DNA of 64,000 nt from assembly GCA_045635565.1 (NCBI GenBank), contig JAZTVX010000021.1, positions 15,078 through 79,077 of the forward strand, given 5' to 3'. The position numbers and the translations under genes are program-made. The notes below the pieces were generated by a model. It saw only the letters and a program-made list of their open reading frames with translations, searched no databases and was not told the origin of the DNA. Position 1 is the stretch's first letter, and every line of letters starts with the position of its first letter. Shown piece by piece: positions 4,856 to 51,225 of the stretch. This DNA comes from Alphaproteobacteria bacterium. Its GTDB lineage: Bacteria > Pseudomonadota > Alphaproteobacteria > CAAHEQ01 > UBA3637.

Positions 4856-5401
4856 TTAGAGTCCTGCTTTGTCAGCCAAATGGCATTCACAGAGCGGATA
4901 AAAATAGAATATAACGCTTAAAATGGCTACAAACAGCACTGGAACAACCACTTTTTCAAAAGGAAAGTGGGCATGTCCGTTGTTTTTTTGCTTCATCCAT
5001 TCGTAAAAATTGATTCCCAACATAAAAGCACCTGCACCGACTAAATTACTAAACAAAAAGGAATCAATGTATAAAAATCCAATGATAATCGGGTCGTATG
5101 TCAATTGTGATATATACATGAATCCAATTGAGCCAATCGAAGCAAGCATTAAAATGGAATCGCGTCCGGCAAAATGCCAATTTTTCTTATTAAACCAACG
5201 AATTAAAAAGTAGCCGAAAATTGTCAATAAAGCACCGGACCAGACACCAATAACGCACTTGTCTAATCCCGATTTTTCAGCTAAATACAATGAAGCACCA
5301 ACAGTGACCATACAAACAGGACAAGCAGGGTTGGCAAAAGATTTGAATGAACAAATAATTGTAAAAATAAAAGTAAGTAGTTTAGACATACATAACCTCA
5401 A
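4856..5401 (-). CDS. Integral membrane protein with CPVC and CEC motifs. Possibly a DsbB-like thiol-disulfide oxidoreductase.
   Basis: 181 aa, about four TM helices, a CxxC at the start of the first loop and a Cys pair near the C-terminus. The spacing is not classical DsbB. Confidence 0.35.
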   Translation of the reverse strand: MRLCMSKLLTFIFTIICSFKSFANPACPVCMVTVGASLYLAEKSGLDKCVIGVWSGALLTIFGYFLIRWFNKKNWHFAGRDSILMLASIGSIGFMYISQLTYDPIIIGFLYIDSFLFSNLVGAGAFMLGINFYEWMKQKNNGHAHFPFEKVVVPVLFVAILSVIFYFYPLCECHLADKAGL

Positions 5402-5638: not shown

Positions 5639-7234
5639 ATGGTTTTTTGGTCAACCGTTTTAGCGTTTATAATCGGTATTATGACGTATATTATTTATCC
5701 GAGAGAGGATCAAATTTCAACCGTTCATATGCCTGCATCGGAAGCATATATTTCCGGTTTTGTGGCGCAACATCAAGCCGCAAAGGATTACTTGCGTGAA
5801 GCATTGATTGGATTAAACAAATTGTCTGGTAAGGTTTCTGCAACGCATAGTGAAGGGGCAATTCTGGTTCTGTCTGGTGAAAAAGATGGAGAAGAAACGT
5901 CGCTTGTTAATTTTATGCCGATGACGCAAACCGTTTCAACATCGTCAGACTTGAAACCTAAGTCTGGTTTTACCAGTGTTTTAGGATGTTTTACGCATCC
6001 TGAACGAAAATACGTTTCGGGTGGTGGTTCTAGTGGATATATGGTCAGTTCGCTTCAGTCATGTACGAGTGAAACCGCTCAAACGAAGTATGTTTTTACA
6101 TATGGTCCTTTACCGGATGAAGCCGATATGCCGTATATGCGTAATAAGATTTTGTTGTGGGAAGCAGCCATTTTACGCAGAACACACGGGAGCCCTGATT
6201 GCGGCTTTTTGCAGGAAAAAAATGGGCGTTACTATGTGAACAATTCTTCACATTTAACCAGAACAATTCCGACTAAATTTGTCGAACAGTTGTCAGATTA
6301 CATTTCTGTTGGTGATAATAAACGTGTATTGGTAGAAGATGAAAACGGGTATGCTGTTCCTCTTTTATTTTGCATGACACCGGCGAATGATCCTTATCCT
6401 CGAGCAGGATTGGTTGCTAATTACGATTCGATAATGAATACAGGTGAAGCGGGTGTTCATGCTGTTACGATTACCGAAAATGATAATAAATGGGTCAATT
6501 TAGGTAATGGCGTACATGGTGAAACATTCGTTGATGCTGTTGTTGAAGGGGATGGTAACTGGTATGTGCCTGATACAGCATTATGTGAAGAAAATCCGAA
6601 TCATTTGTTTTGTACGCATGATAAAGGGTTTTCATTTAATAACAATAGATTTGTTAAAACAGGGATAAAACAAAAATCTTTTGGCAGTTCGTTTACCATT
6701 TCTATGATGGGGCGTTTCGATGGTAAAAATGGCGTTTATGGTGTTTTTGGAACAGAATATACTTGTACGCCGACGGCTGGTAATCCGTGTTTAACGGCCG
6801 AGTATGACAGCAACAATAATATCTTTCGTGTCAAGTTAACGGCGTTGGGTGGAAAAGTATCTGTGTTGGCATATCCTGTACAGGCTGATACAATCACTCA
6901 AATTGATTATATTGTCAATCCGGGTGGGCATAAATTATTTATTGATGGTAAGCACGTTAAGGGTGATTCGTTTTCCTCATCGAATACAAGTTGTACTATT
7001 TGTACGGAAATTTCCGGATTGGCAGAAAATGAGTTTGTTATCGGTCGAAATGCGGAATGGGCAAATCGCTGGAAGGGTGTTATGTACAATTTCTTGTTGT
7101 ATAAAAAAACGCTCTCGATTGCCCCTGATATGACAGTAACAGGTAACGAAAAAATGGAAAAGTTTGATGTAAAAGGTTTGGCTCGTGTTCATAAAACGAA
7201 TTCAGATCGGTATAATTATCAAAAAATAAAATAG
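5639..7234 (+). CDS. Hypothetical exported or membrane-anchored protein. It is the first gene of an operon with the pseudopilin-like gene.
   Basis: 531 aa with a single N-terminal hydrophobic anchor and a Cys-containing extracellular-type domain. Confidence 0.5.
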   Translation: MVFWSTVLAFIIGIMTYIIYPREDQISTVHMPASEAYISGFVAQHQAAKDYLREALIGLNKLSGKVSATHSEGAILVLSGEKDGEETSLVNFMPMTQTVSTSSDLKPKSGFTSVLGCFTHPERKYVSGGGSSGYMVSSLQSCTSETAQTKYVFTYGPLPDEADMPYMRNKILLWEAAILRRTHGSPDCGFLQEKNGRYYVNNSSHLTRTIPTKFVEQLSDYISVGDNKRVLVEDENGYAVPLLFCMTPANDPYPRAGLVANYDSIMNTGEAGVHAVTITENDNKWVNLGNGVHGETFVDAVVEGDGNWYVPDTALCEENPNHLFCTHDKGFSFNNNRFVKTGIKQKSFGSSFTISMMGRFDGKNGVYGVFGTEYTCTPTAGNPCLTAEYDSNNNIFRVKLTALGGKVSVLAYPVQADTITQIDYIVNPGGHKLFIDGKHVKGDSFSSSNTSCTICTEISGLAENEFVIGRNAEWANRWKGVMYNFLLYKKTLSIAPDMTVTGNEKMEKFDVKGLARVHKTNSDRYNYQKIK

Positions 7235-7263: not shown

Positions 7264-9069
7264 ATGAACAAAAAACAACTTAGTGAAAAGGGAGCAATTA
7301 TCGTTGAAGTTATTGCGGTTATTGCTTTGCTCGGGGTGTTGGGACCAATGTTGTTCAAACAAGTTCTTTCCCGAAATGAAGAAGTTGATAATATCAATAT
7401 CGCTTCCGAAATACGGTCGGTTAAGGAGGCTTTGTCAGCTTATATCCTCACGAATAAGCAATTGTTGACGACCAATGTCGGTTGTGTTACAACGGGGATT
7501 GATATTACGGAGTATTTGCCGATGGGTATGGAAGATTTGCCGGACGGTTATAATTTGGTTGTTTGTACGATTGCTCCAGATACATCTGGTTCATCACCGG
7601 CAGCACCTACATTTATTCAAGGATTTATTGTTCCGAATGAATACGTTGTTCCAGAAAATTTGGGTTTGAAACGAGCGGCTCGTATTGCAAATTTGATTGG
7701 TACGGATGGTGGTATTTATCAAAACGGTAGTGTCAATGGTACAGCCGGGGGTTGGGGTATTGATGATTTTGATGGTTTGGAAGGGTTGCAAACGGCATTA
7801 GATAATTCAGCAGTAGCCGGTGGCAGAAATTACACTTATTTGGCAACGACGGGTATGGATACATATGTTCCCGAATATATTGTTGAAGATTACAGTTCAG
7901 GTTTTGTGACTATTCCAGATAATTTGGCTTTTGCAAAATTACATGCCAGTTCGTATTTTTCCATTGGTTCTGGGGGGGGTAATTGTTATGAAAAGAAACA
8001 TAATACAATGAATATTACCGACGAAGGTTATACAGCAGTTGATGATGAAATTTATACAGTTGGTGAAAATAACTGTGATCCGTTATTTTGGGTGGGAGCC
8101 GCTGATGGGTCAACAGCTGATAAGTCAAAATCGGGTATTGTTTATGTCAAAAATAATTTGATGATTGGTCGTCGAAATAAATCTGACAGACAGGCTGTTG
8201 GTATTTATGCCCGTTCGGATTCATTAGATGATTCGGCATATCGTCCTGATTCGTCTAAAGAAAATCGGATTGAAGTTTATGACAATACAGGGACGGCAAA
8301 AGTTGTTATTAACGGTAAAGGAGAGATTATTTCTAAAACCACAAGACCGTTAACAGATTCTTTGACATCTGATAGTGTTGAAACGTTAACAATGGCGGAT
8401 GGTTCTATTACTTCCAACATTAAGGGACCAAATACAGGATCGGCATTTGCAGTTGATCCGGCATATACATCCGTTATGAATGATATTCGTCTTGAATCAC
8501 GGGGTGGGGCTCGTTTAAGTGATATTTTGCCCAATTATATTACAAAAGAGATTGCTTATTTGAAAGGGCGTGGTCCGACTGTTTGTATCCCAGGATGTCC
8601 GAAGGGATATGCTCCCGCCATTGTTGTGATGCCGGTTGCTTGGCAAAAAACAAAAATCAAATACTCTGATATGAAAGATATTTTAGATGCACAGGTTGAT
8701 GTAACAGAAGAAAGTGTGTCTGGCGAAGGTAGTCACAAACATAATGTTGGTGTTTCTGTGACTATTAACTCGGATAAGCAAGATCTTACGGTTTCCGAAA
8801 CAGGATTGATGATTCAAATTGCAACATCAGAAATGGGACAGGCCATTCATAAAGAAGAAGCCTCAGACGAAGATCAGGCCGATGATAGTGATACAACGAC
8901 TATGCCATATCAAGGTAGAGAAACGTGTACGCATGGACAGTGGTTTATATATTCACACTATCCCGATTGGGAATATCAACGTGATGATGTTCATGTTATA
9001 GCACAAACGTATTGTGTATATGACAAAACTGCATTTGAAACTCCAGAAAAAAATCGTCCGTTAATGTAG
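7264..9069 (+). CDS. Large (601 aa) protein with a type IV prepilin-like N-terminus
   Basis: MNKKQLSEKG|AIIVEVIAVIALLGVL has a Gly at -1, a Glu at +5 and a hydrophobic helix, the same arrangement as class III prepilin signals. It starts 30 nt after the upstream gene. Confidence 0.55.
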   Translation: MNKKQLSEKGAIIVEVIAVIALLGVLGPMLFKQVLSRNEEVDNINIASEIRSVKEALSAYILTNKQLLTTNVGCVTTGIDITEYLPMGMEDLPDGYNLVVCTIAPDTSGSSPAAPTFIQGFIVPNEYVVPENLGLKRAARIANLIGTDGGIYQNGSVNGTAGGWGIDDFDGLEGLQTALDNSAVAGGRNYTYLATTGMDTYVPEYIVEDYSSGFVTIPDNLAFAKLHASSYFSIGSGGGNCYEKKHNTMNITDEGYTAVDDEIYTVGENNCDPLFWVGAADGSTADKSKSGIVYVKNNLMIGRRNKSDRQAVGIYARSDSLDDSAYRPDSSKENRIEVYDNTGTAKVVINGKGEIISKTTRPLTDSLTSDSVETLTMADGSITSNIKGPNTGSAFAVDPAYTSVMNDIRLESRGGARLSDILPNYITKEIAYLKGRGPTVCIPGCPKGYAPAIVVMPVAWQKTKIKYSDMKDILDAQVDVTEESVSGEGSHKHNVGVSVTINSDKQDLTVSETGLMIQIATSEMGQAIHKEEASDEDQADDSDTTTMPYQGRETCTHGQWFIYSHYPDWEYQRDDVHVIAQTYCVYDKTAFETPEKNRPLM

Positions 9070-14084: not shown

Positions 14085-14270
14085 AAAATATCTAAACAAT
14101 TTTTTCTGTAAATCACTAAATATCTATTAAAGACTTTTTTCTGTTGCATGAAGTATGGCAATCGATTCGTTTTTAATGTTTTGTGTATTTATTAAAAGAC
14201 AAAAAAAGGCTTTTGCTAAACGATAAAACCTGCTTAAAAATAACATTTAAAAATCAATATATTCTCTTTA

Positions 14271-14443
14271 AAAAACGTGTCAAAAAAAGGTACGTTATTT
14301 TTCCCATACTATTATGCGAAATACCTCTTGTCAACTAAAAAATACAATCATCTGATTTTTATGTGTTTTTTATCCTCGTATAAGCCCTTTCCGTTTCTCA
14401 AAAAAAAGCGTCAAAAAAACGTACCTTTTTTTGACACGTTTTT
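14271..14443. repeat. A 121-bp segment flanked by perfect 26-bp inverted repeats, upstream of the cysteine-rich prepilin-like gene
   Basis: aaaaacgtgtcaaaaaaaggtacgtt (14271-14296) is the exact reverse complement of aacgtacctttttttgacacgttttt (14418-14443). The enclosed segment carries TTGACA-17-TAGTAT on the minus strand, pointing away from the gene. Confidence 0.6.
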
Positions 14444-14489
14444 TTAAGGGAAGGTTTTGATTTTTTGAGACTATTTTAATGGAGGTTTT

Positions 14490-17400
14490 ATGATTCGCAA
14501 AGTGCCTTTTTTGAAACAATTTTATACACAAAAAACACAAGAATATGGCCGCAGTATGGTTGAAATCTTGGGCGTTTTGGCAGTGATTGGTGTTTTATCC
14601 GCTGGTGGGATTTACGGGTATTCGTTTGCTATGGATAAGTATCGGGCAAACGATATTGTGTATGAAGTCAATCTGCGTGCCAATGATATCTGGCATAAAT
14701 ATCAGGAAATGCCTTTGCCTGAACCGAGTGAAGATGGCACGGATTTTGATGAATTTCCAGATACAACGGGAACGGGTTATCCGATTTATATGACATCACA
14801 CCCCGATGTGGCTTTTAAAACATATGTTGAAGGTGTTTCTTCCCGTGTGTGTAAAAATGTTGTGAACATGAACTTAAATGGTGTTGTAAAAGGCATACAA
14901 TTTGTGCAGGTTGCCCAAGGGGACGGGGGTTTGGTCAAATATACAGGCAGTGCATTGATTTGTGGGGAAGATGAAACAGATAATACAATCGTTTTTACAT
15001 CATTTTTAGATTCGGAAAACAATGAAGCAGGTACAGGACAAAGTGGCGACCCATGCGTTGAAAATGCCGATTGTTCCAGCCTCTGTGGAACAGTAACCTG
15101 TGATGCCGATAAAATGATTTGTCAAAATGAATGTACGGGAACGGATAAACCGTATTGTTATGATAATGGTGAAACAGGCACTTGTGTAGAATGTATGGTT
15201 AATCAAGATTGTGTTTCACACGGAGAAAATTACGTTTGTAATATGTCGGACCATACCTGTCAAGAAATGCGTGTTTGTAATGAAGGTAAAAATTATGATT
15301 CGTCTAAACCCCAAGAATACCGTGCTAAAAACGGGGCGTGTATTCCTTGTGTGGATATTAACGCTATTGAAATCAGTTTAGATAAATTTACCGATACCAC
15401 ATTAAATATAGAAGATGATACAACAGGGGAAGAACAATGTAACGCTTGTAATAATACGCATACGGTCACGATTGATGAAGCCAATAATACGGCTTATTGT
15501 GGTGTTGGTTGTATTCGGGGTGTGACATACGAATCATTAAATGACGGTTGTATTCCATGCCGAAAACCAGATGGCTCGCCGAATGATACGGCATACCAAA
15601 TTCCAGTAACAACAAAAGCCCGTGGTTTATGTGAGGCCTGTAATCTTATCTGGTGGCGATATTCTTATCAACTAGACCGGTGTGATTACATGCCTAAAAC
15701 ATGCCCAGAAGGAACATTTGCTGTATTTGGTTACACAGATAATCCTCGCTGTGAACCCTGTACGAATCCAAATCGTGTTACTGTAATTGCTTGGGATGGG
15801 GGACGACATTTAGGTTCGTCCGTCTGGACGACAGATAAAATTAAGGCATCGTGTACATCTTGTCCGGAAAGAACAAAAGATGGGGTTTGGGCAAAACGTG
15901 AAGTTGTCTATGAAAATGTGAATGGTGCTCCTTGGCATTGTATTCCTATTTGCGAACAACCTGATGAAGAAGCTTCAATTGTAGCCTGTACCGATGCTGA
16001 TGACAGTACAGTTTGTAAACGAAAATATAGAAGTAATGGTGAGTGCTATGCATGTGATGATTCGTCTAATCGAATAATAGATACAGGTGGAACAGATGAA
16101 ATAGATACCTATGAAGAAAAAATCTGTATTGCTTGTGGACGCAAGGTTAAAAATGGGTATTGTATCTTGGAAAACACATGTGGTTTAGGACAGGTAAGAT
16201 TAAAAAACGGCACTTGTCTTTCGTGTGATAAAGAGGGATTTCGTCCTGAAATTGTTGATGAAGATGATTCGGGTTGTTTGAAAAACTGTCGTAAGAAAGG
16301 GAATGATTACAGTACAGATTCAGATGCAACAGAAACACGTTGGATATATGATAATGGGACAACAAAGTATTGTTTAAAAATTTGCCCACAAGAACAATGG
16401 CAAAACAGAAATGGCGTTTGTTTTGATTGTTCTGATGAGATGGGTAAAGAATATTCAACACACTCAACTGATTCACCAGGTAAATATTGTTCGGACCGTT
16501 GCCCTAATAGAGAGTTGACACAAGTATGGGGTGATGTTTGCCGATTAAAAATGTGCCCTCCTGATAAAGATGGTACTATTCGTTATCGGGGAAATTTGGG
16601 TGAATGTATGAGATGTGATTTTACCGGTTCAAGAGGAAATGTCCCCAATTCATGGGTAGCAAAAGCACAATGCGATTTATGCAGTAATCGTATTCATAAT
16701 GGTGGAGCAGATTTATACGGTCTTTGTGTTTTAGTTGATCCTGGTGTTAGTGGTGTTTGTAACAGTCAAAATTGGACCATACCATCAAAATTAGCAAGCG
16801 ATCATCCTGATTTATATGATGAACTTCAAGAATATGTTCGTGGTGAACATGATGGTAAATATTTTAGAGATAATGAAGGATTCTGTCATTCTTGCACGAC
16901 TGACAAGGCTGTTTCAACATCACAGGCACAATGTAATCTTTGCAATATTAAGATTATGCAACGTACATACAGTGGCAAGGTCTGTTCATTAGGTGGTTGT
17001 CAAACAAATGAATTTATGAACAACACGCCTGATTGTATCAAATGTACGCCTGCGACAGAACCAAGTTCTTATATCAATGCCACTTATCAACTCAAAATGG
17101 GGCATACGGCAACATGTGGGCAATGTGGCAATCGTCAAATATTGACAGTAGGTTCCAATAATTTGCAATATTGTGTTCCGAATGTTTGTTTGGTTGGTTC
17201 GGAATGGCAATCGGCAAGCAATGGTAAATGCAAACTGTGTCAAGAAGATAATGCTGTTCATGAAAACGGAACAGAAGCCATTTATCGTCAACAATGCGAA
17301 GCCTGTAACCGTGTCGCATTCAGTCAGGAAGCCAATGGGAAAACATCATGGTATTGTTCCAAGTTAGCAACAGATGGCACATTTATTGATAGCACAGGTA

Positions 17401-17537
17401 ATGTGAAAAGTTGTTCGACATCAGGCGATACGCAAATTGCCAATACCACCAAAGCAAGAAATATTTGTGAAGCAAGTGGATGCGATAGAGTTGCTCAATC
17501 AGATGCAAATGGCAATTGGTGGTGTGTCAAAGATTAA
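14490..17537 (+). CDS. Large secreted protein with a prepilin-like leader and an extremely cysteine-rich CxxC-repeat domain
   Basis: The leader MIRKVPFLKQFYTQKTQEYG|RSMVEILGVLAVIGVL has Gly at -1 and Glu at +5. Dozens of CxxC units follow, for example CIPCxxxDG, CEPCTNPN, CTSCPERT, CLSCDKEG. 1015 aa. RBS GGAGG. Confidence 0.6.
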   Translation: MIRKVPFLKQFYTQKTQEYGRSMVEILGVLAVIGVLSAGGIYGYSFAMDKYRANDIVYEVNLRANDIWHKYQEMPLPEPSEDGTDFDEFPDTTGTGYPIYMTSHPDVAFKTYVEGVSSRVCKNVVNMNLNGVVKGIQFVQVAQGDGGLVKYTGSALICGEDETDNTIVFTSFLDSENNEAGTGQSGDPCVENADCSSLCGTVTCDADKMICQNECTGTDKPYCYDNGETGTCVECMVNQDCVSHGENYVCNMSDHTCQEMRVCNEGKNYDSSKPQEYRAKNGACIPCVDINAIEISLDKFTDTTLNIEDDTTGEEQCNACNNTHTVTIDEANNTAYCGVGCIRGVTYESLNDGCIPCRKPDGSPNDTAYQIPVTTKARGLCEACNLIWWRYSYQLDRCDYMPKTCPEGTFAVFGYTDNPRCEPCTNPNRVTVIAWDGGRHLGSSVWTTDKIKASCTSCPERTKDGVWAKREVVYENVNGAPWHCIPICEQPDEEASIVACTDADDSTVCKRKYRSNGECYACDDSSNRIIDTGGTDEIDTYEEKICIACGRKVKNGYCILENTCGLGQVRLKNGTCLSCDKEGFRPEIVDEDDSGCLKNCRKKGNDYSTDSDATETRWIYDNGTTKYCLKICPQEQWQNRNGVCFDCSDEMGKEYSTHSTDSPGKYCSDRCPNRELTQVWGDVCRLKMCPPDKDGTIRYRGNLGECMRCDFTGSRGNVPNSWVAKAQCDLCSNRIHNGGADLYGLCVLVDPGVSGVCNSQNWTIPSKLASDHPDLYDELQEYVRGEHDGKYFRDNEGFCHSCTTDKAVSTSQAQCNLCNIKIMQRTYSGKVCSLGGCQTNEFMNNTPDCIKCTPATEPSSYINATYQLKMGHTATCGQCGNRQILTVGSNNLQYCVPNVCLVGSEWQSASNGKCKLCQEDNAVHENGTEAIYRQQCEACNRVAFSQEANGKTSWYCSKLATDGTFIDSTGNVKSCSTSGDTQIANTTKARNICEASGCDRVAQSDANGNWWCVKD

Positions 17538-17563: not shown

Positions 17564-17591
17564 GTCTCCCGCTGTTTGAACAGCGGGAGAC
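17564..17591. terminator. GC-rich hairpin between the convergent genes at 14490 and metK. Probably a terminator.
   Basis: gtctcccgctg-tttgaa-cagcgggagac. The T-tract is weak. Confidence 0.45.
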
Positions 17592-41892: not shown

Positions 41893-43239
41893 TTATTCAC
41901 TTCTTGCACCCCGACCTTCATCTTTGGGTTTAATATTGGTATTTTGATGACTAATTAGAGTAGGGAAGGTAATTGTCAAATTATCAGATGTTGCTTCCGT
42001 GTTGGTCGATATAGAAAAATAAAAAGGTTGTTGATTGGAATATGCTGGCTTTCTTGTTATTTCTTGACATTTTTGTTCTTCTTGAAACACCTCTTTGAAT
42101 GTACGTGTAATCATATTTCTAACGACTAAAGGCAAATCATTATTGATTGATGATTTTGCTTTTTTCCAATCAATTTTTGATTTTTCATCTTCTGATAATG
42201 TTTTCATGATATAATTAAAAGCGTTTTTGTCTCTTTGTAGAAATGTGCACCCTAATATTTCTTCAATTGTGAACATGTTTAAATTTTTAGAAAAAATAGG
42301 ACATTTTTTTTGATAGAGATGAAACATTGCAAACGGGTGCAATTCTTGAATGGATATACTAGCCATTATGGCTCTTTCTTCTTGAGTGGCTTTTTCATAA
42401 ACCATATCAATAATGTTTTTGTTGCATGTTAAAAGTGCCTCTTTTAAAGGATAGCTATACTTATTAGGTTGAAAGGTTGCGCCTGCATCTAACAAAAGTT
42501 TCACCATTTTTTCATCTTGATGAACAATTGCATAACTTAAAGACGAATTCCCTGCCCAAAACATTTCTTTTCCCCACGTACTGTCTTTATTTTTTTCTTG
42601 AGCAATATTTAAAATTCTTTTAACCAGAATTTCATTTTTGTTTCGAACAGATATTGATAAAAACTCAGATGTACCAAGATTGTTCATAATTTCAGCCCCA
42701 TGTTCAAGAAGCAAAAGAGCCGTTTCGGTGTGATTATGATAAACCGCAGCACGCAAAGCGGGGCTTTCTTTATCACGTTCAAAAAAGGAGGGGTTAATTT
42801 TTGCCCCTTTTTTAATCAACATCGCCACAATTTCTGTTTGTCCAAAAGTAGAAGCCACCACTAAAAGGCTTTTATTATCCCCTGTTTTTTTATTCGGGTT
42901 TAAACCGTTTTGCAAAGCGTGTGCCACTTTTTCAACCAATCCCTCTTTAACCCATTCAAAAGATTGAAAATCTTCATATTTTTTTAAATAAGACGTAATT
43001 TTTTTAACGTTTCCAGACAAAATAGCATCTTTAAAGCGATATTCATCTTTTCCTGAAAAAAACTCCAAATCAATTTTTTTGTTTAAATTGATGAAATAAT
43101 TGAAAATTTCAATAGTTTTCTTTTCAGTCGGATATAAAAAAACACTTTCTCGTTCATATTTTTCAATCATTTCTTTCAGTTTTGAATAATCCCCTGTTTT
43201 AAAGGCATTTTCAAAAAGTTCATTAAAGACAGTATTCAT
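41893..43239 (-). CDS. Ankyrin-repeat protein with a shared-type C-terminal tail (…DEGRGARSE)
   Basis: ANK repeats, for example KSLLVVASTFGQTEIVAMLIKKGAKINP and PALRAAVYHNHTETALLLLEHGAEI. 448 aa. Confidence 0.7.
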   Translation of the reverse strand: MNTVFNELFENAFKTGDYSKLKEMIEKYERESVFLYPTEKKTIEIFNYFINLNKKIDLEFFSGKDEYRFKDAILSGNVKKITSYLKKYEDFQSFEWVKEGLVEKVAHALQNGLNPNKKTGDNKSLLVVASTFGQTEIVAMLIKKGAKINPSFFERDKESPALRAAVYHNHTETALLLLEHGAEIMNNLGTSEFLSISVRNKNEILVKRILNIAQEKNKDSTWGKEMFWAGNSSLSYAIVHQDEKMVKLLLDAGATFQPNKYSYPLKEALLTCNKNIIDMVYEKATQEERAIMASISIQELHPFAMFHLYQKKCPIFSKNLNMFTIEEILGCTFLQRDKNAFNYIMKTLSEDEKSKIDWKKAKSSINNDLPLVVRNMITRTFKEVFQEEQKCQEITRKPAYSNQQPFYFSISTNTEATSDNLTITFPTLISHQNTNIKPKDEGRGARSE

Positions 43240-43262: not shown

Positions 43263-44018
43263 CTACTCTGTTCTTGCACCACGGGAAGTGTCTTGTGTTG
43301 GCAATTGCTTTTGGTCTGTTATTTTTTGGACCTGTCTTGGAATATCTACATCATCTCCTTGTATATTTTCATCTGGGTAAGGCGGAATTCTGTCCAAAAG
43401 TGTTTTTTCATAATTTTCAACAGGTTGAACTGTAATATCTTGCACACGAACAATCGGTGTTGGAAATTTTTGTTCTAAATCCTGATCGCTGATTGGCATA
43501 ATGCTTTTTTCTTCAATGGCTTGTCTGATATATGCTCTAACAGTTTGGCTGTGTTTACTCTTTTTGCGTTCAAATTCAAGTATCCCATTTTTCATAGCAT
43601 CCGAATAAGCCAAAGCAACAGGTGTGTATCCCATTTTATTCACTTTTGTTATAGAGGCTCCATTATTCAACAATGCAACAACTAACTCTTCTCCACCTTT
43701 TTGTTGAACAGCCATATGCAAAAGAGTATCCCCATCTATATCTGCTTTTTTAACATCACATGTCTTATTCTGCACTGATTTGATAATATATTTTTCTAAT
43801 TCAGAAGTATATTGAGAATATTTCATAATTCCTATGTATTCCAATGTTTCACAAGCGGTATTGGATTTATTAAGAACGTTGTCTAAGTCTTTATCAAAAT
43901 CTTCTTCAGTATATGGAAGCAATTGTCTGTTAAAAATGGTAGTTGCAATATTCGCAGTTTTTTTTACTAATTGTGAAAGAAAACCTATTTCATCTTTTTT
44001 ACCAGTATTCGTTGTCAT
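43263..44018 (-). CDS. Ankyrin-repeat protein with the conserved C-terminal tail (…PRQVQKITDQKQLPTQDTSRGARTE)
   Basis: ANK repeat DGDTLLHMAVQQKGGEELVVALLNNGASI..GYTPVALAY. The tail is shared at DNA level with the 51781 and 52328 genes. Confidence 0.7.
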   Translation of the reverse strand: MTTNTGKKDEIGFLSQLVKKTANIATTIFNRQLLPYTEEDFDKDLDNVLNKSNTACETLEYIGIMKYSQYTSELEKYIIKSVQNKTCDVKKADIDGDTLLHMAVQQKGGEELVVALLNNGASITKVNKMGYTPVALAYSDAMKNGILEFERKKSKHSQTVRAYIRQAIEEKSIMPISDQDLEQKFPTPIVRVQDITVQPVENYEKTLLDRIPPYPDENIQGDDVDIPRQVQKITDQKQLPTQDTSRGARTE

Positions 44019-44290: not shown

Positions 44291-45484
44291 TTACATATCA
44301 GTGCATACAGCGTATCTTGCCTCATTGTTCAAACCTGTCGGGTTTACATAACCGTTTGAAGGATTGATATGATAACTATAACAATCAGAGTAAGTATCTG
44401 CCATCCACGACCAGTCAGAACCATACGCTTTTTTCATTGCGGCTGTTGGTGCTGATATATTTGTCGTGCTGGATGTTGTTATTCCGATAGTTCTATCGGC
44501 ATGACAATATCCCCATCTGTTTTCACATCCTGTGGGACAGAATTTGTAGGCACATTTGTAATCGGCTACTTTAACAAGACGTTTTCCTAGAGCTGTACAA
44601 AAATGATCAGCACTCCACCAATTCATTGGGATAGATGACATAACAAACGGCGGATTGGATGATTCTTTTGGTGGTTTAAGCGTTGTATTTTTACAAGAAC
44701 CTGTCATACCTTGTGTATCTTTTGTGCATTTATTTCCACCAACATCTGTAATATGACAATACAATCCTCTGTTGCAATCGCTATTACTTTTGCACGTTTC
44801 TGTTTGCATTTCGCATGTTTTTGAAGATGTGAATCTTGTATTTAATTCATTACAATAGCATTGAATAATTTCCCCTGTTTGCGAATTATGCATTGTCTCA
44901 GCTAAACCACCCAACCCATCCGGTGATGTATTTTTAGGACAAATAAGTAATGGTAAAACCTCTGTATTAAAAAATAACATTATTGTGTTATTTTTATCTA
45001 AACAAACTGCATTTTCATCAATAGATACACCATTTAAGAGTTGATAAACAACATATTTTAAAACATTAGATGACATTTGTATGTTTTTGCAAAGTGGCTT
45101 ATTCACATTGGTTAATGATATCCAATAACCAGTTTCTTTTACATGGCATTTTCTTTCTTTTTTGCCGGAATTGCCACAACCATAATCAAACAGATAATTT
45201 CCGGTTATCATTGTACCATTATCGTATGGATCAACTAATGATAATATTTTTTGCTTATCGTAAGATGTTACCAATTCGATCATCAGTTGATGTGATACAT
45301 TATTGATTTCATTTAGCACATTATTTGCATGATATTTATTCATTGCGTACGTATAACCCGCAATACCGATAATAGAAAGTACACCGACAATGGCTAAAAT
45401 ACCTAACATTTCAACCATGCTACGACCTCGTTGTGTTGTCAATGTTTGTAAATTTTCTGTTTTTCGATGCAAGAAATGAATCAT
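44291..45484 (-). CDS. Cysteine-rich secreted protein with a prepilin-like leader. Third paralog. The start is taken at the internal Met. The ORF track extends it to 45580.
   Basis: MIHFLHRKTENLQTLTTQRG|RSMVEMLGILAIVGVL parallels the leader of the 14490 gene. The C-terminal half is Cys-rich (CHITDVGGNKCTKD...CKNTTLK...). Confidence 0.55.
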   Translation of the reverse strand: MIHFLHRKTENLQTLTTQRGRSMVEMLGILAIVGVLSIIGIAGYTYAMNKYHANNVLNEINNVSHQLMIELVTSYDKQKILSLVDPYDNGTMITGNYLFDYGCGNSGKKERKCHVKETGYWISLTNVNKPLCKNIQMSSNVLKYVVYQLLNGVSIDENAVCLDKNNTIMLFFNTEVLPLLICPKNTSPDGLGGLAETMHNSQTGEIIQCYCNELNTRFTSSKTCEMQTETCKSNSDCNRGLYCHITDVGGNKCTKDTQGMTGSCKNTTLKPPKESSNPPFVMSSIPMNWWSADHFCTALGKRLVKVADYKCAYKFCPTGCENRWGYCHADRTIGITTSSTTNISAPTAAMKKAYGSDWSWMADTYSDCYSYHINPSNGYVNPTGLNNEARYAVCTDM

Positions 45485-45605
45485 ACTACCCCCAAATAAA
45501 ACAACGTTTCTTGATAAAAACATTCCATAACAAAATATCCTTTTTGGAGGCATGATATTGGATATTTTGTCTATTGTCAATAAAAAAATAACATCTAAAT
45601 GCCCT

Positions 45606-45783: not shown

Positions 45784-48700
45784 TTATTTTTTCTGGTTAA
45801 TAACCTCTAATACATTATATTCATCGATAATATCGTTGTGATGATTGGTTATATTATTTTGATTCATCAATTCTGTTATATAATCATGGTGGTCTTTTGG
45901 ACCTGGATATATCATTTTATCATTAAGAAGTGAATAATATGCATTTTTGATAAGTGCTCCGATTTCGAATTGAATTTTATTTTCAATACTCGTTCCTTGT
46001 TTTTTCCCGTTAATAAACACATTTTTACTATGTCTGACAACATTTTGATCATTTGTTTTGATAATGTTACTGCTATCTAATGTTAAATGGATTGGTCTTC
46101 TGATTAAAGCCAACTGTGCAGTTGCACTATAATCAAGAGTATCCTTGATATTACCAATAACGATTTTCTTATCTTTTGTTTTGATAATTCCTTTGTCTTT
46201 AATATCACCAGTTATACTAACATTTGGTGTTTGAGTCGTCAAAGAAAGTGTTTCTGTAGTGAGGTCTTTTATTTTCACATCAGTATCAGAAGAAATAACA
46301 ACATCTTTGGATAAAATTTTATTGTAATTTGCTCCATTTCCCGTGTTGTTCAAATGAATAAGATCGCTTGCAATAGCGTTTACGTTGTTTTCATTTGATA
46401 GATCAATTTTTAACGCATTCTCTTTCCCAATTGATTGACTGGCTGTTAATGAAACATTTTTAGCAAAAATATTTGTATCATCAGAAGACAAGCCATTCAA
46501 AATGCTCATGTCAGTTGTAATATCAATATTATTGGAAAAGTCATTTGTAAGCCCTATGATTATTCCCAGATGTAAATCTTGAGATGAGTTAACTGTTAGA
46601 TTATCAACAACACCACTTAAAATGCCATTAGCTTTTAATTCATCAAGTGTTACATCTTTGCCAAAGATATCTAAATCTTCATTAACAAAAACATTGTTTA
46701 GTATTGCATTTGTATGAGTTGTAACAGAAATACTACCCGTTTCTGATATTAAATTGTTAGCCATGATGTTGTTTTTTGCATCAATCATAGCATTACCAAC
46801 AGATATTCCCTCGTTGATATTTAAAACATCTCCAATGCCTTTTATAAATGATTGTTCTGCTTGATATTTCAATCCTTCACCCGCTTTATTTGATGGTGTT
46901 GACACAACCAAGAAACGCTCTCTTGAACCAATGTCTTTACCTTCAACTGTAGTTAATGAAATATTTTTAGCGTTAATATTTACTGTTTCTATTTTTTCAA
47001 ATTTTTCAGAAACATTGCTAATATTTCCTGCAGATACAACTTTAACAGTTCCTAACGCACCTTCGCCGTTATTTGTATCAATCTTATTGATTTTTAATCC
47101 ATTTTGAACATCTTCTGTTCTTAGATAAACATTACTTTCACCTTTAGATAAGATGGTTACCCCTTTGGTTGAAGACAAATTTATTGATGAAGTTTGACTC
47201 CCGACATCACCACTTGCCTTAATTGCAATTTGTTCGCCAGCAATAGAGGAAGCATCAGTTGCATTTTGAACACCTTTATTATTTGTTAAGGTTACATTTT
47301 TAGAGGCTCTAATTGTTCCAATTTTCATATCGTTGTCAGAAACATTTTGGATATTAATACTGTTTAATCCCCCTAGCTTACCATTGTTATATCCAGCAGT
47401 TGCATTTATTGCCCCATTTATATTCACTTCAAGATTTTCGATATTCCCGGCTTCAGATGAAAGAGTTAAATCTTTACCTGCAAATAAGTTATAGTTTTTA
47501 TTTTTATCAGAACTTGCTGTGGCTATAATTCCAAAGGTAGAATTTAATGCTACATTTCCTTCATTTGATTGAATATTGTCGATATACATTGTTGCAATAG
47601 AATCTAAATATATATCATTTTTAGCTTCTATGTTGTAAACACCATTCTTTGCAAATTTTAATGCAGAATCTTTTGTTCCAATTCCACCATTTAATGCTTT
47701 TAAATAAATTTCGCTACCTATGATATGATATGGACTATAAGTTTTGGTGTTGCCGGCAATGATTGAGCCTTCTTTACTTTCTAAAGATATTTTTCCATCA
47801 TTTTCTGATACAATTGAAGATACAACTAAATCGCCTTTATTTGTAATAGAAATGTTGTTTTTAGCTCTGGCTTTTAATTCGTTAACATCAATATCAATAT
47901 TTTCATTTTCAGTTGTATCAAGAAGGATGCTATCAGCTCTTAATTCTAAAGTGTCAGCAAAAATATTTATCTCTTTTCCAATACCATTAAAGTTTTTGTT
48001 AGAGGATGCGAGATAGGCATTGCCACTTGCATTAATGTTAATATTGCTTATCTCTGTATATGGATAATTGATATACACGTCTTTACCACTTGCAGTTAAA
48101 GTTCCATTATTTAAAACTTCAACTTGAATGGCTTTGATTGCAGATCCATTTTCTGTTAATGATTCACCAATATTATTTTGAGTATTTAAAGTAATATTAT
48201 TTGCTGAAATGATAGAATTTGTACCATTCGCTAAAATGCTTCCGTTTGATGTGATATTAACATCACCATGAGCAGCAGAAACGTTGTTGTTTAATAATAT
48301 ATTACCGCTTCCATTAGATGTAATATTAATTTCTGGTTTATCAAATCCTTGAAAGTCAATTGAAATAGAATTGTTTTTAACTTCATAAACCGGATCATAA
48401 TTAACCGTTACGGTTTTATATTGTTTGCCAGTAAATAATTCAACAAGCCATGAACGAGGTTCATAAACTTGATAAGAATATGTTCCACCGGCAGATGTTA
48501 TTGTGTAAGCATCCTTACCGGGAGTATATGTTGTTGAATAAACTTTTGCACCGTCAGCCCTTGCAACAACAGATGTTTCATTACCAAAGAATCCGTTTCC
48601 TTGAGTGTTTCCTGTTGCTGAAGTAATAATTTCACCCTTATTAACATAAACTTCATATTTTCCGGCATTAGAAGATAAAAACTCGTTTGTTAAGTTATCA

Positions 48701-50052
48701 TGAGACAGATTATCAAAAGTATCTCCACCATCTTCTGAAGAAAACTTGAAGTCATTGATTGTTAATTTACCTTGAGTGTTGATATCGGCATTTAATGTAT
48801 TTGTAACCAAATTGTATTTTGAATTATTTATAATATTGATATGTCCGTATCCGTTCAAAAGAACAATTTTACCTGTGTTTGAACTGCTGACAATATTTCC
48901 AGTTAATGTAATATCGCCACCTTCAATATTTGTTTTAAACAAGTGAATATCTCCAGTGACATTTCCTGTTTTAGTTGAGTCGGTTGGTTTAAAATAGGCC
49001 TTGATTTGTTTCAATTGAGATAAATCACTTGTATCATCTGTTAAAGTTAAATAATAGTATTCTTCCCCTGTTTGACTTTTTGTCATTTCGGTTTTAACAC
49101 CATTGATAATCTGATAATATGTATCACCTTCTTTGACAATTGATAGGTCTGGAATGTTAATTTCTTTAATTTCACTTCCGCTTTGAATTAATCCGTTAAC
49201 ATCTATTGTTTTTGCTTCAATATTAATATTTCCAGTTGCAACAATGGCACCATTTTCATTTGCACCGGCAATTTCTATTTCATTTGAAGTATATTGTTGG
49301 TTAAATCCTCCGTTTGGTACTTTTATTTCCAAGTTCTTTGCTTTTAAATTTCCTTCAGATAAAATACTACCAGTATTGTTAATGATAGAAATAGAACCAG
49401 ATGTGTTTTCAACATTGCCTCTTAAAACGATATCACCGGCCTGAGAATTGATGTTAACACTTGGATCATTGGCATTCACATGGTTCACAATGGATATTTT
49501 TGTATCAATGGTTTCATTTACTATATTTTGTGTAATAGAGGAGGGGATACTTGTTCCATAAATACCACCTTTTAACTCTCTATCGATAATCAAATCACCA
49601 TAAATGATGTTATTAGCGCTATAGTTTTGAATATCAATTGTGAAATTATTTCCAGGGGCTGTAATTGAACCTGATCCTGTGATATTCCCCGTTAAATTGA
49701 CTTCACCTGATCTGATAATAATATCATCTACAACCATCGAATATATAGAAGTATCAGAGGAGGCATTTTCTTCTTGTCTGTGTTGTAGTTCCTCTATTTT
49801 TGCCTGCAAATCTTTAATGTCATCAGTATATTTTTCTCTGGTTTCTTCTAATATAGCATTTATTTGATTGATATTATTTTCGGCAGAAGACATTGTGCTT
49901 TTATAAGTTTCAATTGCTATATTATTTTCATTTATTTGTATTGTATCTTGAGCTATTTGTTTGGTTAAAGATTCTTGTTTTGTTATTACAGCAAATAAGG
50001 CATCAGAGTAAGCTTGACTGTTTTTGCCTCCAGTATTATATGCATCAATCAT
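45784..50052 (-). CDS. Giant (1422 aa) beta-helical repeat protein. FHA/adhesin-like Asn/Gly/Ile-rich repeats. It has no signal peptide and no TPS domain.
   Basis: N-terminal coiled coil, then repeats such as GNITGSGSITAPGNNFTIDIQ and GDIVLRGNVENTSGSISIINNTGSILSEGNLKAKNLEIK. Confidence 0.6.
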   Translation of the reverse strand: MIDAYNTGGKNSQAYSDALFAVITKQESLTKQIAQDTIQINENNIAIETYKSTMSSAENNINQINAILEETREKYTDDIKDLQAKIEELQHRQEENASSDTSIYSMVVDDIIIRSGEVNLTGNITGSGSITAPGNNFTIDIQNYSANNIIYGDLIIDRELKGGIYGTSIPSSITQNIVNETIDTKISIVNHVNANDPSVNINSQAGDIVLRGNVENTSGSISIINNTGSILSEGNLKAKNLEIKVPNGGFNQQYTSNEIEIAGANENGAIVATGNINIEAKTIDVNGLIQSGSEIKEINIPDLSIVKEGDTYYQIINGVKTEMTKSQTGEEYYYLTLTDDTSDLSQLKQIKAYFKPTDSTKTGNVTGDIHLFKTNIEGGDITLTGNIVSSSNTGKIVLLNGYGHINIINNSKYNLVTNTLNADINTQGKLTINDFKFSSEDGGDTFDNLSHDNLTNEFLSSNAGKYEVYVNKGEIITSATGNTQGNGFFGNETSVVARADGAKVYSTTYTPGKDAYTITSAGGTYSYQVYEPRSWLVELFTGKQYKTVTVNYDPVYEVKNNSISIDFQGFDKPEINITSNGSGNILLNNNVSAAHGDVNITSNGSILANGTNSIISANNITLNTQNNIGESLTENGSAIKAIQVEVLNNGTLTASGKDVYINYPYTEISNININASGNAYLASSNKNFNGIGKEINIFADTLELRADSILLDTTENENIDIDVNELKARAKNNISITNKGDLVVSSIVSENDGKISLESKEGSIIAGNTKTYSPYHIIGSEIYLKALNGGIGTKDSALKFAKNGVYNIEAKNDIYLDSIATMYIDNIQSNEGNVALNSTFGIIATASSDKNKNYNLFAGKDLTLSSEAGNIENLEVNINGAINATAGYNNGKLGGLNSINIQNVSDNDMKIGTIRASKNVTLTNNKGVQNATDASSIAGEQIAIKASGDVGSQTSSINLSSTKGVTILSKGESNVYLRTEDVQNGLKINKIDTNNGEGALGTVKVVSAGNISNVSEKFEKIETVNINAKNISLTTVEGKDIGSRERFLVVSTPSNKAGEGLKYQAEQSFIKGIGDVLNINEGISVGNAMIDAKNNIMANNLISETGSISVTTHTNAILNNVFVNEDLDIFGKDVTLDELKANGILSGVVDNLTVNSSQDLHLGIIIGLTNDFSNNIDITTDMSILNGLSSDDTNIFAKNVSLTASQSIGKENALKIDLSNENNVNAIASDLIHLNNTGNGANYNKILSKDVVISSDTDVKIKDLTTETLSLTTQTPNVSITGDIKDKGIIKTKDKKIVIGNIKDTLDYSATAQLALIRRPIHLTLDSSNIIKTNDQNVVRHSKNVFINGKKQGTSIENKIQFEIGALIKNAYYSLLNDKMIYPGPKDHHDYITELMNQNNITNHHNDIIDEYNVLEVINQKK

Positions 50053-51225
50053 AGTTTTGAGTACGGTGATTTATTTAATCTCAACACGTTAAGAAAAGAT
50101 TTAAATACTTTTAATCGGAATGCGCGTTCTGTTAAAATGAGAGCAGAATTAAAACCGGGTGAAAAGTATGGAACAACAGATGTTAAAATGGTTGCTGAAG
50201 AAAGTTTTCCATATCATTTATCTACTTCATTTGATAACTTTGGCAGGGATACAACTGGAGAGCATAGGGGAGGGTTGGTCGCTTCTTCAGATTCATTGAT
50301 TGGATTTCAAGATAGGTTATCAGTAGCATTCAATATGTCTCGTTCATCTTCTAATCCTTATGTTGATTATAGTATACCAATTAACCATAGTGGAACAAGA
50401 ATGGGGATTTCATATATGTATGGTAAAAGCGAAATCAGTTTAGATAATAATGCTGATTTTGATTTAACAGCAAAATCAAGAACGCTTAGTGGGTATTTAA
50501 CGCACCCGCTTATTGATACTTCAAAAGGGAAATTAAATCTTAATACCTCTGTTAACGCAAAAAATTCACATGCAGATATTTCGGATATTACCTATTCCAA
50601 ATATAAAGGCCGGTCTGTTGCTGTTGGATTTGGTGGTAATTATAACTTTAATAACAGTATGTTATATGCTTCATCATATTTGACTTCCGGGGTTATTGAA
50701 GATCATATAAAAGATAAGAAACATAGTTTTAGCAAAGTGAATGCTGATTTATATTATATACATTATTTGCCTTCCAGTATTGTTGGAACTTTTAAGGCTG
50801 GTGGGCAGTATTCACCTGACAATATGGCCTATCTTGAACAATATCAAATTGGCGGAATTTCAAGTATCAGAGGATATTCAGAAGGTTTGTTGATGGGAGC
50901 AAGTGCTTATTATACCAACCTTGAAATGTTATTCCCAATACCATTTCTACCTAAAACAATCAATGTTCCTTGCAAAAAAGATGAAACATTCCACTTAAAA
51001 GATTCAGTAAAATTTGCTACTTTTGTTGATCATGGGGCTGTCTTTCATCATGATAGACCAACAGAAAAAGAAAACTTTTTGTTAAGTGCAGGTGTTGGCT
51101 TAAGATTTGCTTTAAGCAAATATATTTCTGCCAGATTTTATGTCGGATTCCCATTGATGAACAAAAAAACATATCGAGAATCTGATGCTGCCTTTCATTT
51201 TGATATAATTGCTGTTCCTTTTTAA
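50014..51225 (+). CDS. TpsB (ShlB/FhaC)-family outer-membrane transporter. Apparently 5'-truncated: no signal peptide and no first POTRA domain.
   Basis: POTRA2-like LRKDLNTFNRNARSVKMRAELKPGEKYGTTDVKMVAEESFPYHLSTSFDNFGRDTTGEHRGG. The Omp85/TpsB L6 motif is present as ISSIRGY. C-terminal beta-strand ends in Phe. Confidence 0.55.
   Translation: MTVFASSIICINHSFEYGDLFNLNTLRKDLNTFNRNARSVKMRAELKPGEKYGTTDVKMVAEESFPYHLSTSFDNFGRDTTGEHRGGLVASSDSLIGFQDRLSVAFNMSRSSSNPYVDYSIPINHSGTRMGISYMYGKSEISLDNNADFDLTAKSRTLSGYLTHPLIDTSKGKLNLNTSVNAKNSHADISDITYSKYKGRSVAVGFGGNYNFNNSMLYASSYLTSGVIEDHIKDKKHSFSKVNADLYYIHYLPSSIVGTFKAGGQYSPDNMAYLEQYQIGGISSIRGYSEGLLMGASAYYTNLEMLFPIPFLPKTINVPCKKDETFHLKDSVKFATFVDHGAVFHHDRPTEKENFLLSAGVGLRFALSKYISARFYVGFPLMNKKTYRESDAAFHFDIIAVPF

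Follow-up and report, generated by a model that had tools for sequence, protein, structure and literature searches.

The window analyzed here is a stretch of 64,000 nucleotides from Alphaproteobacteria bacterium (assembly GCA_045635565.1, contig JAZTVX010000021.1, positions 15,078 to 79,077 of the forward strand), and its forward-strand gene at 14490..17537 is read as encoding a giant modular pilin of a type IVb-like system characteristic of a clade of uncultured gut Alphaproteobacteria, with a probability that we place at about 0.62. Direct support comes from an invariant class III (prepilin-type) signal motif, a predicted pilin fold, an N-terminus shared with small pilins that adjoin pilus machinery in relatives, the anatomy of a cysteine-rich repeat region, and the parity of cysteine counts among homologues. 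The carrier module falls into a new type IVb pilin subfamily that evades hidden Markov model (HMM) searches; the overall design is that of the known modular pilins, while the cargo is new.

Gene and product

The open reading frame (ORF) starts with an ATG preceded by a GGAGG ribosome-binding site (RBS) at 14482-14486 and encodes 1015 residues, 80 of which (7.9%) are cysteines. Nineteen CxxC motifs and about ten C-x3-6-C pairs were counted among them. A hairpin resembling an intrinsic terminator (17564..17591, forward strand; 12-bp stem with 8 GC pairs) lies 27 nucleotides past the stop codon, and the gene appears monocistronic.

The first-pass annotation of this window had listed three ORFs with prepilin-like N-termini, and all three exist at 14490..17537 (+), 7264..9069 (+), and 44291..45580 (-) with 1015, 601, and 429 residues, respectively, the last of these if read from a TTG. 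A six-frame motif scan detected class III-like N-termini at exactly these three genes of the window. The quoted N-terminal sequences were borne out, each with Gly at -1 and Glu at +5, but they had been given in an order that differed from that of the genes; G|RSMVEILGVLAVIGVL is that of 14490, G|RSMVEMLGILAIVGVL that of 44291, and G|AIIVEVIAVIALLGVL that of 7264.

N-terminal signal and pilin module

Residues 1-20 (MIRKVPFLKQFYTQKTQEYG; 14490..14549, forward strand) form a hydrophilic, basic leader that ends in Gly20 at a predicted prepilin-peptidase cleavage site (G|R), and the predicted mature product without this leader comprises 995 residues. Class III signals consist of a hydrophilic leader ending in Gly, followed by about 21 hydrophobic residues with Glu at position 5, and the leaders of type IVb prepilins are 15-30 residues long (PMC4471445). 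The leader of the 14490 protein falls within the range of about 6-30 residues for class III leaders and is followed by the hydrophobic stretch RSMVEILGVLAVIGVLSAGGI, in which about 21 mostly hydrophobic residues carry Glu at +5. Leaders of 20 residues were found in both the 14490 and the 44291 genes, while leader length among homologues varied from about 6 to more than 20 residues, partly as a result of uncertain starts.

About 100 full-length homologues of 870-1150 residues (up to 1151) were collected, and 72 of them were taken into the alignment. Gly20 (-1) and Glu25 (+5) are invariant in all 72. The best-conserved stretch is GRSMVEILGVLAVIGVLS, and the most conserved part of the protein reads GRSMVEILGVLAVIGVLSxGGIxGYxYAMDKYRANDI. 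Besides the invariant Glu25, the hydrophobic alpha-1N carries a Gly at +14 and a Tyr at +24, both of which also occur in PAK pilin. A profile of the N-terminal 55 residues ranked five type IV pilins first in the PDB (E 0.004-0.04), PilA and geopilin among them, and these alignments run in exact register from G-1 to G-1 and from E5 to E5. Invariance and register together support the earlier proposal that a prepilin-type signal is fused here to a very large extracytoplasmic domain. Its suggested confirmation by membership in Pfam N_methyl (PF07963) failed, with 13.6 bits for the 14490 protein against a gathering score of 21.2.

The pilin module extends from residue 21 to about residue 178 (14550..15023, forward strand). 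It comprises the hydrophobic alpha-1N, a 48-residue alpha-1 helix (residues 23-70), and a five-stranded sheet (residues 98-172), and it contains the conserved Cys121 and Cys158. The predicted model shows the long N-terminal alpha-1 packed on an antiparallel beta-sheet that is typical of pilins, and its best structural neighbors were the type IVb pilins CofA, TcpA, and PilS. The long leader, a residue other than Phe at +1 (Arg), and, in the predicted model, the larger alpha-beta fold are all features of type IVb pilins. Judged by this model, the carrier is a full type IVb pilin fold and more than a signal. A Foldseek comparison of the full-length model with the PDB returned nothing significant (best E 0.9), with Amuc_1100 and CofB as weak matches only.

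Protein family and pilus machinery in relatives

The N-terminal profile recovered 1344 protein clusters, and every cluster with a taxon name was a protein of an alphaproteobacterial metagenome-assembled genome (MAG). A few of these clusters carry the names PilE or FimT/FimU. A scan of metagenomes for the same N-terminus yielded more than 468 loci, 78 of which were fetched. Across 117 family instances the mature length ranged from about 115 to 995 residues; most were 115-250 residues long and often stood in tandem arrays, while the upper tail of the distribution, at 320-990 residues, consisted of cysteine-rich proteins. A literature search found nothing relevant on the GRSMVE/GRSMIE motif or on cysteine-rich class III proteins. 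Within the species collection, the MAG Alphaproteobacteria bacterium RGIG4106 (JAFTSJ01) from roe-deer caecum is the closest genome, and it carries at least five paralogues of the 1015-residue protein at 57-77% identity. The related contigs come from gut-type metagenomes, and two are labeled human gut. The description of the organism as an intracellular alphaproteobacterium found no support in these relatives, which belong to gut and rumen metagenomes.

Pilus machinery was identified beside family members on several related contigs. On contig L074, genes for PAP_PilO, a 306-residue ORF, a T2SSE ATPase, and a T2SSF platform protein are followed by four tandem pilins of 152-193 residues, all of which start with ..G|RSMIEMLGVLAIIGVLS and three of which match Pfam PilS and/or Bundlin. 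Contigs L091 and L092 encode TcpQ, Secretin, PAP_PilO, an ORF of unknown type, T2SSE, and T2SSF in this order, followed by a 183-residue pilin with G|RSMVEML, while L093 and L094 carry the same operon without adjacent pilins. A fragment of a Peptidase_A24 prepilin peptidase (E 8e-11) occurs together with a family gene on the 7-kb contig L031. Since the N-terminus of the giant protein is shared with small pilins that stand beside such machinery, it identifies a true subfamily of pilins that a Tcp/R64-like type IVb machine serves.

Several observations weigh against a giant pilin in this lineage. Family searches of the ORFs found no prepilin peptidase, ATPase, platform protein, or secretin in the 64-kb window, and no machinery was present in about 47 kb around the homologues of the nearest MAG (L001 and L002) and of the relative L006. 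None of the 120 top relatives of the ATPase could be linked to MAGs with giant proteins. The GC content of the machinery-bearing contigs is 44-51% and that of L031 39%, compared to 34% in the window, and the machinery contigs are therefore taken to represent a different genus. No family member tested passes Pfam N_methyl; 9 of 22 N-termini matched at E <= 1, the best of them at E 0.009. The canonical small pilins of L074, whose N-terminus is the same, likewise reach just 17-20 bits, which indicates that Pfam N_methyl under-detects this subfamily. The Arg at +1 is unusual, and the three-dimensional arrangement of the eleven cargo repeats rests on prediction. The main reservation is that the machinery link for the exact lineage, resting as it does on related contigs, is unproven.

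The strongest competing explanation, though unlikely, is that the protein is pilin-like and processed but never polymerized, with the class III signal serving export or anchoring. It would then sit in the inner membrane facing the periplasm or in a short pseudopilus or "bindosome"-like structure, in parallel with archaeal sugar-binding proteins that bear class III signals and with the pseudopilins of type II secretion. A mature protein of 995 residues does far exceed anything shown to enter a type IVb filament, but modular pilins of more than 800 residues have already been catalogued (PMC8179133). Likewise, the giant genes are scattered among housekeeping genes outside pilus operons, while the same module heads tandem small pilins beside operons that contain a secretin. 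Proteins with class III signals do not all build pili (PMC4471445), and a second pilin-type protein of the window, at 7264, is GspG-like; the predicted carrier of the 14490 protein nevertheless goes beyond a mere signal in having the full type IVb pilin fold.

Two to five divergent genes for small pilins with the GRSM(V/I)E N-terminus stand in tandem at L054 144-2131, L074 5829-8114, L039, L022, and L061, an arrangement that points either to heteropolymeric filaments or to an antigenically varied major subunit, too. On three independent contigs (L007 911-1317, L008 525-937, and L009 384-697), a 55-residue ORF with the pilin N-terminus overlaps the next ORF of about 80 residues by 4 nucleotides. 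These pairs could be a split or frameshifted small pilin, or a very short alpha-1-only pilin like the 80-residue one in L010/L011. Two giant members lie only about five locus tags apart in five MAGs (E7014_06415/06440, IJO11_05080/05105, IJC11_04630/04655, IJ440_02745/02770, and IKJ28_01545/01570), and the paralogues are therefore clustered rather than dispersed in some genomes. Just upstream of the type IVb operon on L091, proteins with TrbC/VirB2 domains are encoded at 444-2854, one of them 530 residues long. In the window itself, the 181-residue product of a membrane ORF (4856-5401) was weighed as a candidate TadV-like prepilin peptidase and rejected, as it matched neither Peptidase_A24 nor the acidic motif.

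Cysteine-rich cargo

About 835 residues of cysteine-rich cargo follow the pilin module. They begin with a linker region (residues 181-273; 15030..15308, forward strand) whose 15 cysteines form three short knots of the type C-x4-5-DC-x3-8-C and are invariant or nearly so in the family; model confidence is lower here, with a pLDDT (predicted local distance difference test) of 59-76. The remainder (residues 274-1015; 15309..17534, forward strand) consists of eleven tandem, divergent repeats of about 65 residues, each with six conserved cysteines in the order C-x2-C ... C-x2-C ... C-x3-6-C. The CxxC repeat announced by the first-pass annotation is thus real in that eleven units can be aligned, while its "dozens" of CxxC motifs was a generous figure for the 19 that were counted. 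Nearly every cysteine of the protein is invariant in the 72 homologues. Each unit was modeled as beta-hairpins with one short helix, and a separate model of residues 274-565 was very confident (pLDDT 91.8, predicted template modeling score 0.82). From these models, the eleven-repeat region is predicted to be a disulfide-rich rod.

The full protein had no match in Pfam and NCBIfam, and no Pfam family was reached at E <= 0.1, including the models for furin-like domains and for variant-specific surface proteins (VSPs). The repeat region had no match among PDB sequences at E <= 10. An exhaustive phmmer scan of 1.84 billion representative proteins recovered only 43 relatives of the repeat region, and all 43 agree with this bacterial pilin family in length and domain offset. 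Without a sequence relative or a structural relative in the PDB, the cargo is a candidate new fold. The comparison with eukaryotic furin-like or VSP repeats is not upheld by any detectable sequence or structural similarity and is limited to cysteine spacing. Furin-like and epidermal growth factor receptor cysteine-rich domains and Giardia VSPs also combine a high cysteine content, frequent CxxC, and a repetitive extracellular architecture; the unit of the 14490 protein, unlike theirs, has a short helix and six cysteines per approximately 65 residues.

Cysteine counts bear on whether these residues bind each other or a metal. The total is even in 92 of 100 full-length homologues and differs between them in steps of two, which is a signature of obligatory disulfide pairing rather than of Cys4 metal sites. 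About 40 disulfides are probable in the whole protein from these counts, about 39 of them in the 835-residue cargo. A metal-binding array of Cys4 zinc-ribbon-like, iron-sulfur, or haem type, acting in metal sequestration or in extracellular electron transfer along a pilus, is accordingly improbable. Paired CxxC motifs 20-30 residues apart do have the classic spacing of zinc ribbons, and the only non-pilin profile matches in the PDB, all very weak, were CXXC and GATA zinc fingers (E 0.2-0.7), but the units conserve six cysteines and not four, and the totals move in pairs. The organism is an anaerobe with a pyruvate:ferredoxin oxidoreductase, which would favor such an array, while the domain is extracytoplasmic and His follows none of the 19 CxxC motifs. 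The protein therefore has no haem c sites and does not resemble a multihaem c-type cytochrome.

An ordinary Sec signal-anchor on a membrane-bound or secreted cysteine-rich protein, with the Gly and Glu positions coincidental, would agree with the sub-threshold N_methyl score and with a window lacking peptidase and machinery, but is very improbable given that Gly-1 and Glu+5 are invariant in the most conserved segment of 72 homologues, that type IV pilins are the top PDB matches in register, and that an identical N-terminus stands on PilS/Bundlin-type pilins adjoining T2SSE/T2SSF, secretin, and PilO.

Proposed mode of action

Under the giant-pilin reading, the prepilin would insert into the inner membrane via its hydrophobic alpha-1N, and a prepilin peptidase (Peptidase_A24) would cut after Gly20, so that the 20-residue leader is lost and Arg becomes residue +1. 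The pilin module with its CofA/TcpA-like fold would then dock into a filament of small GRSM(V/I)E pilins assembled by the TcpQ-secretin-PilO-ATPase-platform machine. The giant subunit would be a low-abundance minor pilin at the filament tip, as proposed for CofB, TcpB, and other modular pilins; a tip position is the most likely one because the subunit is so large. There it would present its 835-residue module of three cysteine knots and eleven repeats, held together by about 39 disulfides. The cargo is probably elongated, which would allow passage through the secretin, and would most likely act as an adhesin or ligand-binding arm. The several divergent paralogues per genome would form a repertoire of alternative arms on one conserved carrier, which suggests alternative binding specificities.

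Comparison with known systems

The first-pass annotation regarded the architecture as unusual, but there is nothing unusual as such in a pilin that carries a large fused module. Modular pilins have been documented as a widespread way of presenting adhesive domains, probably at the pilus tip; more than 1200 of them in 264 architectures were surveyed by Raynaud et al. 2021, with an extreme of 860 residues, and CofB is described as a tip-located example (PMC8179133). The 14490 protein has the same design of a pilin module with a C-terminal module of about 835 residues, and this module matches no described domain. With 1015 residues, and up to 1151 in the family, it exceeds the largest protein of that survey (PMC8179133). 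The catalogued modular pilins were found through IPR012902/N_methyl together with a known domain, whereas the present family passes neither filter.

Among the closest parallels are CofB of the enterotoxigenic E. coli CFA/III pilus and TcpB of Vibrio cholerae, which, like the 14490 protein, carry an N-terminal type IVb pilin module with extra domains. The machinery of the relatives, consisting of TcpQ, secretin, PAP_PilO, ATPase, and platform protein, is likewise of the Tcp/R64 type. While CofB and TcpB are about 400-520 residues long, and the extra domains of CofB are a beta-repeat and a beta-sandwich, the 14490 protein has 1015 residues and eleven cysteine-rich repeats that are unrelated in sequence and fold. 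The genes for CofB and TcpB are also single and lie inside the pilus operon, while many dispersed paralogues occur here, at least five of them in the nearest MAG. PilB and PilC of Streptococcus sanguinis, in which a small pilin carrier bears a vWA and a lectin module at the C-terminus, respectively, follow the same design for a proposed role in adhesion (PMC8179133).

A further parallel concerns variation of the cargo. In PilV, a minor pilin of the thin pilus of plasmid R64, the N-terminal part is constant, while the C-terminus, which sets binding specificity, comes in alternative forms that are swapped by a shufflon. The present family shares with it the type IVb PilS/PilO-type system and the combination of a constant N-terminal part with alternative C-terminal parts. 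In R64, however, the C-termini are swapped into one gene by site-specific recombination, while the arms are encoded here by separate full-length genes and any DNA-level switch would act on the promoter.

Type IV pili gain functions by grafted modules, and the catalogued cases depend on recognizable domain signatures. The present family escapes the N_methyl and known-domain filters, yet it comprises the 1344 clusters found in uncultured Alphaproteobacteria of gut, rumen, and caecum, and its members range from ordinary pilins to proteins of about 1000 residues that are among the largest predicted pilins. Annotators can use the GRSM(V/I)E N-terminus to recognize a type IVb pilin subfamily missed by current models. 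If the giant members are pilus-borne adhesins, they would indicate how a poorly known group of host-associated bacteria attaches to its partners.

Inverted repeat upstream of the giant pilin gene

The 14490 gene is directly preceded by a long, imperfect inverted repeat. Its left arm at 14223..14301 and right arm at 14413..14491 are each 79 nucleotides long, 82% complementary, and share a perfect core of about 27 nucleotides (AAAAAACGTGTCAAAAAAAGGTACGTT); the right arm overlaps the GGAGG at 14482-14486 and the start codon. The 111-nucleotide segment between the arms (14302..14412) contains a near-consensus, sigma-70-like promoter on the reverse strand, TTGACA-17-TAGTAT (14334 to 14306), which faces away from the pilin gene, and no gene was found in the direction that it faces. 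The same layout with 111-nucleotide spacing and an outward TTGACA-17-TATTAT promoter precedes homologues at L001 9251-9483, L002 9736-9968, and L099 1754-1986. Across these loci the arms are 61-79 nucleotides long with perfect cores of 27-30 nucleotides. A different repeat pair (35 nucleotides, 101-nucleotide spacing) occurs at L098 1792-1962, where the center aligns in neither orientation. A search of Rfam with the region upstream of 14490 returned nothing credible.

In the invertons of gut bacteria, such as E. coli fimS and the capsule promoters of Bacteroides, inverted repeats flank a short promoter segment by a gene for a surface structure. The same layout of inverted repeats around a promoter segment beside a gene is present at 14223-14491, with the promoter now facing away. 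In contrast to known invertons, no opposite orientation and no recombinase accompany it: no flipped segment was found in five homologous loci, the four comparable ones (the window, L001, L002, and L099) all have the same orientation, and no recombinase is encoded among the window ORFs of at least 120 residues. From its layout, the element looks like a candidate invertible promoter in the OFF orientation. A role at the RNA level is also possible, as the arms, imperfect and of unusual length, extend over the RBS and start codon.

Contigs of metagenomes and MAGs, including L003, L004, and L005, repeatedly end within the upstream repeats or within the conserved N-terminal coding region, and the three independent metagenome contigs L095 (1-62), L096 (1-208), and L097 (1-79) end inside the repeats. 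Most of the top database matches to the N-terminal profile are short fragments, many of them labeled "partial". Such assembly breaks are consistent with multi-copy sequence shared among paralogues, with heterogeneity of orientation, or with both. On L093, a 548-residue gene of the tyrosine recombinase family (Phage_integrase; 14182-15828) directly follows the platform-protein gene of the type IVb operon and is a candidate for DNA-level switching in the clade.

A bolder and rather speculative proposal, to which we assign a low probability, is that the giant proteins are interchangeable and individually phase-variable type IVb tip adhesins. Each would be built on an undescribed disulfide-rich repeat rod that fits the secretin, and each paralogue would have its own invertible promoter, so that the tip repertoire would shift across the population. 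Phase-variable tips of this kind would parallel the R64 shufflon and pilin variation in Neisseria, with promoter inversion as the mechanism. If the upstream repeats are real switches, they would add a case of phase-variable pilus tips.

Other pilin-type genes in the window

The three genes had been introduced as paralogues, but 14490 and 44291 share only the N-terminal pilin module, and 7264 shares only the signal-type motif. The modules of 14490 and 44291 are homologous over about 150 residues (36% identity, E 7e-17), with nothing shared beyond them, while 7264 aligns to the others over just 23 residues of leader and helix (E 0.014).

The second family member is encoded on the reverse strand at 44291..45484 and comprises 397 residues from its real start, the ATG at 45484, which has its own G-rich RBS and a TTGACA-17-TATCAT promoter. 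The TTG at 45580 was rejected as a start (429 residues), as this TTG is part of the -35 box of that promoter. A pilin module with a 20-residue leader is followed by a cysteine-containing region unrelated to that of 14490. The protein of about 400 residues had been described as a second CxxC-repeat protein, yet it has 20-21 cysteines and no CxxC. The best PDB matches of its last approximately 130 residues were all C-type lectin domains (E 0.07-0.9), aligned on a WxxAxxFC motif, and this weak sequence likeness points to the fusion of a pilin with a C-type-lectin-like domain. L030 carries a full-length homologue. The promoter of this gene is fixed, and no inverted-repeat element was found there.

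The gene at 7264..9069 (forward strand) encodes a separate, GspG-like pilin-type protein of 601 residues with a 10-residue leader, the motif G|AIIVEV, and 8 cysteines. Only its first approximately 60 residues resemble the alpha-1 of a pseudopilin or pilin, and it is not a paralogue of 14490 and 44291. It matched GspG at E 8e-5, far below the cut-off, and the GspG structure 5wda in the PDB at E 0.003. Full-protein searches of Pfam and NCBIfam with 7264 and 44291 gave far-sub-threshold GspG and PpdD-type matches only.

This gene forms a two-gene unit on the forward strand with 5639-7234, from which it is separated by 30 nucleotides. The upstream product has 531 residues, an N-terminal membrane anchor with neither a leader nor Glu5, and a weak match to Laminin_G_3, a concanavalin-A-like lectin family (E 0.0013). 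Lectin modules of the Laminin_G_3 family are common in modular pilins, and the pair may represent further pilus-associated proteins. ORF 5639 was rejected as a fourth prepilin, as its N-terminus is hydrophobic but lacks leader and Glu5 and stop codons lie just upstream.

Organism and neighboring genes

The window has a GC content of 34% and encodes the alphaproteobacterial regulator GcrA, pyruvate:ferredoxin oxidoreductase, three ankyrin-repeat proteins, and a ShlB-type two-partner-secretion transporter. The ankyrin-repeat genes (41893-43239, 43263-44018, and 61173-63947, all on the reverse strand) are unusually dense for a bacterium, with three per 64 kb, and suggest an association with a eukaryotic host or protist. 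A divergent gene pair consists of 45784-50052 (-), encoding a repetitive, beta-strand-like protein of 1422 residues with no Pfam match, and 50014-51225 (+), encoding a ShlB/FhaC-type transporter (E 2.5e-34), and is probably a two-partner secretion system. The pilin-lectin gene at 44291-45484 lies directly downstream of the 1422-residue gene at 45784-50052.

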